In this document: positions 19,790-20,637 of the stretch, in pieces
Layout of the letters: each line of letters begins with the position of its first letter
How positions within the stretch are numbered: position 1 is the first letter of the stretch
Origin: an uncultured Planctomycetia bacterium
Lineage (GTDB): Bacteria; Omnitrophota; Gorgyraeia; 1-14-0-20-64-10
NCBI GenBank assembly: GCA_964343105.1
Contig: CAYFHV010000001.1
Location: forward strand, 4,884 to 48,800
Direction: 5' to 3'
DNA length: 43,917 bases
Made by a program: the position numbers and the translations under genes
Notes under the pieces: model-generated
Seen by the model: only the letters and a program-made list of their open reading frames with translations
What the model was told of the DNA's origin: nothing
Databases searched by the model: none

Positions 19790-20426
19790 GGGCCTCGTCC
19801 CCGGAGAGGAGGTCGGCCAGCTCCAGCGCAGCCGCCTGCAGGTTGTTGGCGAAGTGACGGAGCCGGTAGGTCAGGTAGTGATAGACGGCGTAGGCGGGAA
19901 TGGCCAGCAAGAGCCCGAAAACCGTGGTTAAGAGCGCCTCCCAGATTCCGCCGGCCAGGTCCCCGGGGTTGACCGGATGAACGGTGGTGGCCTTCTCCTG
20001 GATTACCTGAAAACAGCGGACCAGACCGGTCACGGTTCCCAGGAGGCCCAGCAGCGGGGCCAGCTGCGCGATGCTGCCCAGGATCGGCAGGTGCCGCTCG
20101 AGCGAGGGCAATTCCAGCGCGCCCTCCTCCTCAATCCGCTCCAGGATTTCCTGCCGGGGGCGGCCGTTGCGGCGCAGGGCCGCCCGAAGCATCCGGGCGA
20201 AAGGGCCCCTGCCGGACTGGGAAAGCTCCCGGACGCGGGCAAGCTGGCGGCTCCGGATAGCCTCGGTGACCACCGGGAGGAGATTCGGGAGCTCCTCCTC
20301 GGCACGGCCCAGGACGAAGAAGCGCTCGATGGCGATGGCGAGGGCGGCGATCGAGCAGACCAGGATGGGCCACATGACCGGTCCACCGCGTTGGAACAGT
20401 TCGAACAGGGAGGGGCTGCTGCTCAT
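19779..20426 (-). CDS. exbB: MotA/TolQ/ExbB proton-channel protein
   Basis: GGPVMWPILVCSIAALAIAIERF, then GSIAQLAPLLGLLGTVTGL and TTVFGLLLAIPA, all typical of the family. Start at the ATG at 20426. The upstream extension lies inside a repeat element. Confidence 0.85.
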   Translation of the reverse strand: MSSSPSLFELFQRGGPVMWPILVCSIAALAIAIERFFVLGRAEEELPNLLPVVTEAIRSRQLARVRELSQSGRGPFARMLRAALRRNGRPRQEILERIEEEGALELPSLERHLPILGSIAQLAPLLGLLGTVTGLVRCFQVIQEKATTVHPVNPGDLAGGIWEALLTTVFGLLLAIPAYAVYHYLTYRLRHFANNLQAAALELADLLSGDEAHAG

Positions 20427-20628
20427 CGCTCCGGCTGACGCCTCCGCTCTCGGGGCGGAACCGAGGGTTCCATCCCCGGCAGTCGCCGTGCGACGAAGAA
20501 GGAGCACGCGCTTGGCGACGCCGGCGAGAAGGTGAGCCGGCAGACTCCTTCAAGGAAGGCGAGGGGCGAACCCCCTCGCGCACCCCTGAAGGCTGGGAAT
20601 CTGTACGCTCGGAAGCGCGACTTCGCCT

Positions 20629-20632
<4 letters not shown>
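20423..20632 (-). CDS. candidate conserved small ORF (69 aa, Arg-rich), copy 1
   Basis: Sequence [69 protein letters not shown]. Its ATG overlaps the uvrA TGA (ATGA) and its TGA overlaps the exbB ATG (ATGA). A paralogue at 39869-40033 keeps the frame across two indels. It could equally be a non-coding repeat. Confidence 0.35.

Positions 20633-20637
<5 letters not shown>
20423..20637 (-). repeat. bipartite intergenic repeat, copy 1 (module A 20423-20478; module B about 20553-20637)
   Basis: Module A is 55/56 identical to 39857-39912. Module B shares a 16-nt block, a 31-nt identical block and an 18-nt identical end with 39927-40034. Confidence 0.85.

Follow-up and report, generated by a model that had tools for sequence, protein, structure and literature searches.

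In the 43,917-nucleotide (nt) stretch of contig CAYFHV010000001.1 analysed here (the window; assembly GCA_964343105.1, an uncultured Planctomycetia bacterium), the spacer between uvrA and exbB is, on comparison with related genomes, an inserted repeat and not native spacer. A second copy occupies the start of argC, and a third, orthologous copy lies in a related genome. With moderate confidence, we read the element as a small (142–202 nt), non-coding, non-autonomous dispersed repeat with a conserved two-hairpin core, inserted at ATGA starts and stop/start overlaps, whose open reading frame (ORF) relays ribosomes to the gene behind it. The apparent conserved coupling peptide would be what an insertion on a start codon left behind.

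Two copies of one repeat in the window

On the minus strand, uvrA (953 aa; Pfam domains UvrA_inter, UvrA_DNA-bind and ABC) ends with the stop TGA at 20631–20629, and exbB begins with the ATG at 20426–20424, leaving a 202-nt gap that constitutes the body of copy 1 (20427..20628) between two ATGA tetranucleotides. The left ATGA (20629..20632) combines the uvrA stop with what would be the ancestral exbB ATG; this ATG (20632–20630) now opens a 69-codon ORF (20423..20632; MKAKSR...RRRQPER*). The right ATGA (20423..20426) combines the stop of that ORF, TGA at 20425–20423, with the present exbB start, which is placed at ATG 20426–20424 and not at M18 because the N-terminal segment SLFELFQRGG of ExbB aligns with relatives. 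Downstream of exbB follow, in order, exbD, a DUF2582 gene and cutA.

The partner, copy 2 (39857–40038), lies on the same strand, and its 169-nt body (39861..40029) sits at the start codon of argC (38808–39860), which is followed by argJ and argB; on its 5' side stands rpsI with a terminator-like hairpin and T-run. Its left ATGA (40030..40033) opens a 54-codon ORF (39869..40033) that ends with TAG at 39871–39869, 8 nt before the argC ATG contained in the right ATGA (39857..39860); the same codon is CAG in copy 1. The two copies match as direct repeats over 76 nt (88% identity) and over 67 nt (87%), with nhmmer E-values from 1e-51 to 1e-54. The remaining direct-repeat pairs between distant sites of the window extend over at most 50 nt at 70–85% identity, and the only other long pairs, D1 and D4, are local repeats with separations of 117 and 1029 nt and have no relation to the element.

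The copies differ in length by 27 nt and 60 nt. The 60-nt block is specific to copy 1 (20483..20544), is bounded by the direct repeat CTGCCGG, and is missing from copy 2 and from the orthologous copy. It was considered as a second repeat family and rejected, being unique among the window and the collected loci. The original prediction had reported the two copies with their shared blocks, both length differences and the 69- and 54-codon ORFs, as well as the uvrA stop, the exbB start, the 202-nt gap and the ATGA overlaps at copy 1, and all of these are borne out by the sequence.

Empty sites in relatives

The argC site is empty in four relatives whose ArgC is 94% identical, namely L052 (GCA_947085785.1) and three Logan contigs (L053–L055). 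There the sequence reads TTTTTGAGGAGGTC-ATGAAG-ATCCGG (also given as GAGGAGGTC ATGAAG ATC, with the longer left flank GGTCGATTTCTTTTTGAGGAGGTC), and in the window it reads TTTTTGAGGACGTC-ATGA[169 nt]ATGA-AGATCACG (left flank also given as GGTCGATTTCTTTTTGAGGACGTC). A relative with 79% identical ArgC (L056) likewise carries no element at argC. The empty site in relatives marks the start of the copy 2 ORF as the original start codon of argC, still preceded by its native Shine–Dalgarno (SD) sequence, GAGGAC in the window and GAGGAGG in L052.

The exbB site is comparable. In L065 the uvrA TGA overlaps the exbB GTG, so that an uninterrupted GTGA overlap is retained; in L003–L005 and L066, leaders of 13–40 nt follow a conserved TTGAAC-N17-TATAGT within the uvrA tail, and in L002 an 11-nt leader follows a TAAAAT-like box. 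The window reads TATAGTGGACCCTGTCGC-ATGA-[202 nt]-ATGA-GCAGC, and removal of the insert restores a uvrA-TGA/exbB-ATG overlap. Such −4 overlaps (ATGA or GTGA) are the commonest junction type in the lineage (9 of about 37).

To judge by the empty and filled alleles at both sites, the ORF starts from the codon that originally began the downstream gene and has since been displaced, and ATGA is duplicated on either side of the element. The small ORF had been described as joined to both neighbours; this would follow because the element was inserted between duplicated ATGA at the uvrA/exbB overlap. A structured repeat resembling repetitive extragenic palindromes or miniature inverted-repeat transposable elements (REP/MITE-like), which the original prediction kept as an alternative, is the better description of the DNA, with an empty site in close relatives. 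The ATGA on both sides of copies 1–3 corresponds either to a 4-bp target-site duplication or to a fixed target plus an element-borne end.

At the argC start of L056 (504–521), the sequence ATGAAG-GCGAAACAG-ATC (MKAKQI...) contains nine extra bases exactly at the insertion point of the window, the first five of which equal the left end of the element. These nine bases may be a footprint, or a coincidence.

An orthologous third copy and a recombination boundary

The ExbB relatives among species-representative genomes are metagenome-assembled genomes (MAGs) labelled Candidatus Omnitrophota, the closest of them (93%) being labelled Planctomycetia. The third copy, orthologous to copy 1, lies between uvrA and exbB on the MAG contig CAYJQV010000008.1 (L001; 2855–3004), and encodes 49 codons in the same frame without the 60-nt block. 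The ENA contig L057 represents the strain of the window (99.93% identical) and shows one substitution within the element; L058, which starts with sequencing adapter, was left out. Across the uvrA/exbB junctions compared, which also include L002–L005 and L064–L066, the element is present only in the window, L057 and L001.

Compared with L001, the window has diverged at 4-fold sites by 6.7% in uvrA (20629–23490), and by 31% in exbB and 22% in exbD (19340–20426). Because this divergence jumps across the element, a recombination boundary is placed, from the sequence comparison, at or near it. Copy 2 is nearer to copy 1 than the ortholog L001 is, both in module A, the segment that ends with the ATG of the downstream gene, and in module B, which fits recent copying within the lineage of the window.

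Frame geometry and the proposed ribosome relay

The distance from the old ATG to the new one is 206, 173 and 146 nt in copy 1, copy 2 and L001, respectively, in each case 2 mod 3; correspondingly, the element length is 1 mod 3 in all three, and each of the three length differences (27, 60 and 27 nt) is a multiple of three. The frame opened by the old ATG ends on the TGA of the second ATGA in copy 1 and L001 and, in copy 2, 8 nt short of that ATGA; the other frames would fuse 49–69 residues onto ExbB or ArgC or read past the start codon. This geometry agrees with selection in favour of a frame that closes at the regenerated start. At the right end of the element, GGAG stands 2 nt before the AUG; native genes here often have a spacing of 2–5 nt.

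In the proposed mechanism, the element would insert at the ATGA of a gene start or of a stop/start overlap and come to lie with ATGA on both sides. The sequences show that the old start codon, with native initiation signals or coupling to uvrA, now opens a frame through the element and that the second ATGA regenerates the start codon of the gene. Ribosomes from the old ATG would then translate through the element and melt its hairpins, end translation at the new start codon and resume it from there, where the weak GGAG two nt upstream may assist; such a translational relay is what we infer. The insertion would survive because it is nearly neutral for the expression of exbB or argC, and the peptide would have no function.

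A conserved hairpin core in a wider family

The consensus fold comprises two extended hairpins, H1 and H2, which are unlike in sequence. In copy 1, H1 (GCGAGGGG-loop-CCCCUCGC; 20559..20579) has stems that are invariant and a loop that varies among copies, and H2 (CGGGG-AU-GGAACC-CUC-GGUUCC-G-CCCCG; 20451..20478) holds an internal AUG at 20473–20471 and is conserved in four loci outside the window (L059, L060, L062 and L063). In copy 2, H1 (39933..39980) is lengthened by a 27-nt apical extension, and H2 (39885..39912) holds its internal AUG at 39907–39905, with an SD-like GGAGGAGGA at 39925–39917. Within the shared core, 7 of the 57 paired columns are variable vs 10 of the 21 unpaired ones (Fisher p=0.0017).

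These four loci were found by a hairpin-pattern scan of metagenomes. L059 (57% GC) carries the whole element from ATGAAGGCGAG, a left junction that lies 6 nt behind a TATTAT box; this copy also has an additional hairpin and a tandem duplication of 27 nt. L062 and L063 (70% GC) carry the core with different arms; both contigs stop inside the element, and they have 87 identical nt in common. L060 (38% GC) retains only ACAGAUU...GGGAGGAUCGUU and H2, the outer stem of which shows a compensatory C-G to U-A double change. Contigs of 57% and 70% GC share an almost identical core, and H2 is recognisable at 38% GC. A further candidate, L061, was rejected as a chance pattern match with unrelated flanks.

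Three observations concern the surroundings of these loci. In L060 (1194–1325, minus strand), a TTGTCA-N17-TATAAT promoter is followed by a structured segment of about 125 nt that ends with GGGAGGAUCGUU and H2 and runs directly into tRNA-Lys; this segment could be a small RNA akin to the element core, or could be where the core came from. In L063 (reverse strand, 1–2000), the frame of the element stays open for about 640 codons into the ORF of a sigma-54-dependent activator (AAA+ motif GETGTGKE), and the internal AUG of the element could serve as the start of the activator gene. L059 (196–274, minus strand) gives a c-di-GMP-I-GGC riboswitch-like match of 50.1 bits, below the gathering threshold of 59.

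The ends of the element (AGGCGAAG... and ...GCCGGAGCG, with end motifs ATGAAGGCGAAG and GCCGGAGCGATGA) and the inverted-repeat list of the window revealed no terminal inverted repeats (TIRs), and a reading of the window element as a TIR-bearing MITE was dropped for this reason. No transposase was found among the Pfam-scanned genes of the window or the called genes of L052 and L057, a set in which several ORFs have no Pfam hit and some stretches were unscanned. Searches with nhmmer profiles built from three and five copies across about 430 kb (the window and the loci) yielded no further full copies. The exact module A pattern had no match in genome contigs (the final 3 nt of the pattern are different in L001), the exact module B pattern had none in metagenome contigs, neither pattern matched viral contigs, and plasmids and phages contained no blastn match to copy 2.

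Probable remnants at other ATGA starts and an unrelated insertion

At the start of the DUF2582 gene, the window reads ATGA-AGGCCATTCG-ATGA (19313..19330, minus strand), a probable element remnant that forms a 5-codon mini-ORF (ATGAAGGCCATTCGATGA, MKAIR*) whose TGA overlaps the ATG of the gene. The remnant amounts to 10 nt plus ATGA, a 14-nt insertion in the window relative to L064–L066, where the start consists of a single GTGA (L064 and L065) or a single ATGA (L066). In L001 the corresponding start (4097–4114) reads ATGAAGGCAAAG-CGATGA (full string ATGAAGGCAAAGCGATGA), that is, the left end of the element joined to its right end. The mini-ORF emerged from junction and end-pattern scans; a scan of the window for further relay ORFs returned mostly shadow-ORF artefacts, did not contain the mini-ORF and was discarded.

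At the lysA/dapF junction, L052 (19067–19094) reads ATGA-AGAGGCGTGCCGGAGCG-ATGA, which equals the terminal 19 nt of the element (GAGGCGTCAGCCGGAGCG plus the preceding base) minus 2 nt. By comparison with L052, the 17 nt between the two ATGA of the orthologous junction in the window (30731..30755, minus strand) are a probable right-end remnant that has diverged, with 12 of 17 positions matching. The first ATG of this junction is in frame with dapF and offers a possible 7-residue extension.

The uvrA-stop/exbB-start junction has also received an unrelated element. In L064 (GCA_964595335.1, CAZQQF010000008.1; ExbB 72% identical), an 80-nt hairpin element (1377–1456) follows the ATGA, is bounded by perfect 12-nt TIRs (CCCCACCACCTG / CAGGTGGTGGGG) and is accompanied by duplicated TGA. 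Here, too, the old ATG is left with an ORF, of 28 codons, whose TGA overlaps the new GTG start, the frame property also seen with the repeat.

Weighing the relay against other explanations

Several points weigh against a relaying insertion element. The frame statistic is post hoc and based on small numbers, roughly p 0.01–0.04 (about (1/3)^3 to (1/3)^4), and the openness of the frame says little because the element is open in nearly every frame. L059 departs from the rule on ATG spacing if the right border there is the next ATGA (181 nt, 1 mod 3). Copy 2 contains a premature TAG, the L062/L063 core is flanked by a 13-nt repeat in place of ATGA as well as by different arms, and only about six independent copies were found. 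No TIR, transposase or mobility machinery was identified, and the exbB, argC and DUF2582 neighbourhoods together with 10 further ORFs gave only housekeeping Pfam matches. Moreover, the right-end GGAG-CG-AUG alone could initiate translation, in which case coupling would not be required.

A bolder version of the insertion account, which we hold to be unlikely, makes the two-hairpin core with its embedded GGAGGAGGA-N9-AUG the active part of an undescribed mobile class that homes to ATGA starts and stop/start junctions. It would act as a portable ribosome-relay cassette that has been passed horizontally between uncultivated bacteria differing widely in GC, possibly from a small RNA gene like the L060 promoter-to-tRNA-Lys transcript. 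Its targeting mechanism would be new, because neither TIRs nor a transposase are evident.

Transposition might instead have played no part, the element having been copied by microhomology template switching or ectopic gene conversion between CATGA(AG) gene starts, as inert DNA with uncoupled translation from GGAG-AUG. The missing TIRs and the lack of a transposase among the Pfam-scanned window genes agree with this, as do junction homologies of only 4–7 nt; the closer match of copy 2 than of L001 to copy 1 in modules A and B suggests copying within the genome, the contrast in 4-fold divergence between uvrA and exbB points to recombination at the element, and the 2-nt spacing after GGAG resembles native starts. 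However, the same core occurs in unrelated contigs of very different GC, the element or its remnants are found at no fewer than four separate ATGA start codons, and the L064 junction element, with its 12-nt TIRs and TGA duplication, shows that true insertions occur at such sites. Copying without transposition is improbable in our judgement.

The hairpins could alternatively constitute a cis-regulatory structured RNA, either riboswitch-like or a protein-binding leader, that controls the downstream operon, the ORF being incidental. Several structural features speak for such a role: the two-hairpin core is kept across contigs of 57–70% GC, and H2 also at 38% GC; variation is concentrated in unpaired columns; the H2 outer stem of L060 bears its double change; G-U pairs are conserved on the sense strand; the copies found sit on the sense strand 5' of a gene (exbB, argC, the sigma-54 activator) or a tRNA; and the fold of copy 1 reaches z = −3.1. 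Yet the fold of copy 2 reaches only z = −1.6, and covariation is almost absent, the sequences being too similar. Rfam 15, searched with the window copies, L059, L060, L062 and L063, returned no family at gathering thresholds or at E<=10; the best scores, 16–22 bits vs gathering values of 58–105, all belong to hairpin look-alikes. The downstream genes (exbB, argC, the sigma-54 activator and tRNA-Lys) are functionally unrelated, presence varies between strains with 94% identical ArgC, decayed remnants mark further junctions, and neither a terminator nor an obvious alternative SD-sequestering fold is apparent. A regulatory RNA is rated as distinctly improbable.

That the ORF encodes an Arg-rich micropeptide with a function, or a leader peptide that senses arginine and attenuates the arg operon, is very improbable indeed: the ORF is open in one frame through copies 1, 2 and 3 and L059, a run RERRR stands just ahead of argC, and all indels between copies are multiples of three, but a peptide-alignment search of 5.8 billion proteins yielded zero homologues at E<=1, five of the six frames of this 68% GC sequence are stop-free, and the same peptide precedes unrelated genes, including exbB, which has no relation to arginine. 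The codon periodicity that the original prediction had proposed as a check is lacking, with variable sites at codon positions 1/2/3 numbering 6/8/3 and no third-position excess, and the differences between the window and L001 ORFs (S5A, G20V, G21A, S22P, E28G, E62S) nearly all change amino acids. In-frame stops, another proposed check, do occur: a TAG in L060 and the early TAG of copy 2. Judged on these substitution and frame patterns, the peptide is not conserved as such and shows no sign of selection. The arginine attenuator was rejected, as no terminator was found after the element, the ORF also stands before exbB, and the element is missing from the argC leader of close relatives. Of the proposed translated coupling or leader ORF, the geometry survives (ATGA at both ends of copy 1 and a frame kept through indels), but a meaningful peptide or arginine leader does not.

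Other features of the locus

A promoter-like TTGAAC-N17-(TGc)TATAGT lies in the 3' end of uvrA (20645..20673, minus strand), 12 nt upstream of the left ATGA of copy 1. The motif, as TTGAAC-N17-TG(c/g)TATAGT, falls within the poorly conserved C-terminal tail of uvrA and is nucleotide-conserved in L003–L005, L064 and L066, in which ExbB is only 54–72% identical. This conservation suggests an internal exbB promoter that would yield a near-leaderless transcript.

In each of three genomes examined that bear the element (P0121, P0122 and P0127), the public annotation begins ExbB at Met18 (198 aa), the full ORF of the window spanning 19779–20426 on the minus strand; the two uninterrupted relatives P0123 and P0124 have annotated ExbB lengths of 213 and 232 aa. 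Start prediction for ExbB is apparently led astray by the insertion. Elsewhere in the window, a 78-aa ORF (23550–23786, minus strand) contains an internal tandem duplication (QKVxKxGIKRxxGxLYxxDKQGDxSxAKMAR, twice), which accounts for the 92-nt direct repeat D1 (23572–23780).

Relation to known systems

Bacterial MITEs (Correia/NEMIS, ERIC, RUP and BOX) are small, non-autonomous, structured elements that are co-transcribed with their neighbours and polymorphic in presence. The window element shares small size, lack of autonomy, structure, strain polymorphism and probable co-transcription with them, but it has no TIRs, and its flanking repeat is a specific ATGA rather than a length-defined duplication of arbitrary sequence; the L064 element, with its 12-nt TIRs and TGA duplication, is by contrast a textbook MITE. 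Palindrome-associated transposable elements (PATEs) derived from the insertion sequences IS200/IS605 have no TIRs, carry subterminal hairpins and insert strand-specifically beside a fixed tetranucleotide, with no true target duplication needed. Hairpins, absence of TIRs, strand specificity and a position beside ATGA are likewise found here. Unlike the usually similar hairpins of the left and right ends (LE/RE) of PATEs, however, the two hairpins of the element differ, no tnpA or tnpB was seen among the Pfam-scanned window genes, and the left and right "cleavage" tetranucleotides would need to be identical.

Rickettsia palindromic elements (RPEs) are palindromic repeats of about 100–150 bp that tolerate an open frame and become fused in frame to host ORFs, the function of the peptide being not known (PMC10969869). 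In-frame tolerance is a common trait, and the L063 copy runs in frame into the sigma-54 activator ORF. RPEs lie mostly inside coding sequences, whereas the window element forms a separate relay ORF that is in the −1 frame with respect to the gene and ends at ATGA.

The closest parallel is provided by mycobacterial interspersed repetitive units, or MIRUs (Supply et al. 1997, Mol Microbiol 26:991, as summarised in PMC12548453). In that summary, MIRUs are short repeats between co-oriented genes, lie in gene orientation and apparently occupy start codons; the ends of their ORF overlap the stop and start of the neighbours at −4 spacing, expression is barely disturbed and a transposase is not known. 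Relay by termination and re-initiation is the mechanism proposed for them (PMC12548453, citing Supply et al. 1997).

Against this outline, the window copies and L001 likewise lie between co-oriented genes (uvrA/exbB and rpsI/argC) on the gene strand. ATGA stands at both ends of copy 1 and L001, and in copy 2 the right-hand side agrees, except that its TAG comes 8 nt early; L059 does not fit. Insertion at start codons is a further likeness (the empty argC in L052–L056, exbB in L065, and DUF2582 in L064–L066). The element differs, as far as the summarised account allows comparison, in that its copies are single and 142–202 nt long, whereas MIRUs form tandem variable-number arrays (VNTRs) of units of about 40–100 nt, and in that it is built on two strong hairpins that stay conserved in hosts differing widely in GC. 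Furthermore, the host is an uncultivated bacterium resembling the Planctomycetes–Verrucomicrobia–Chlamydiae (PVC) group and Omnitrophota, not Mycobacterium; the likeness is one of mechanism, and homology is not expected. The element thus appears to work like a MIRU and is not classed as a member of the MIRU family, of which it is probably evolutionarily independent.

The principle itself is not new, MIRUs having it already. The element would be a second example of it, in the form in which MIRUs are summarised: a repeat that survives by landing on ATGA and whose ORF hands ribosomes to the gene. How MIRU-type repeats move, and why they settle on start codons, is a question not known to have been answered. 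It becomes testable, by comparative genomics and simple reporters, in a family that offers cleanly empty and filled sites, remnants in decay and a conserved structured core.

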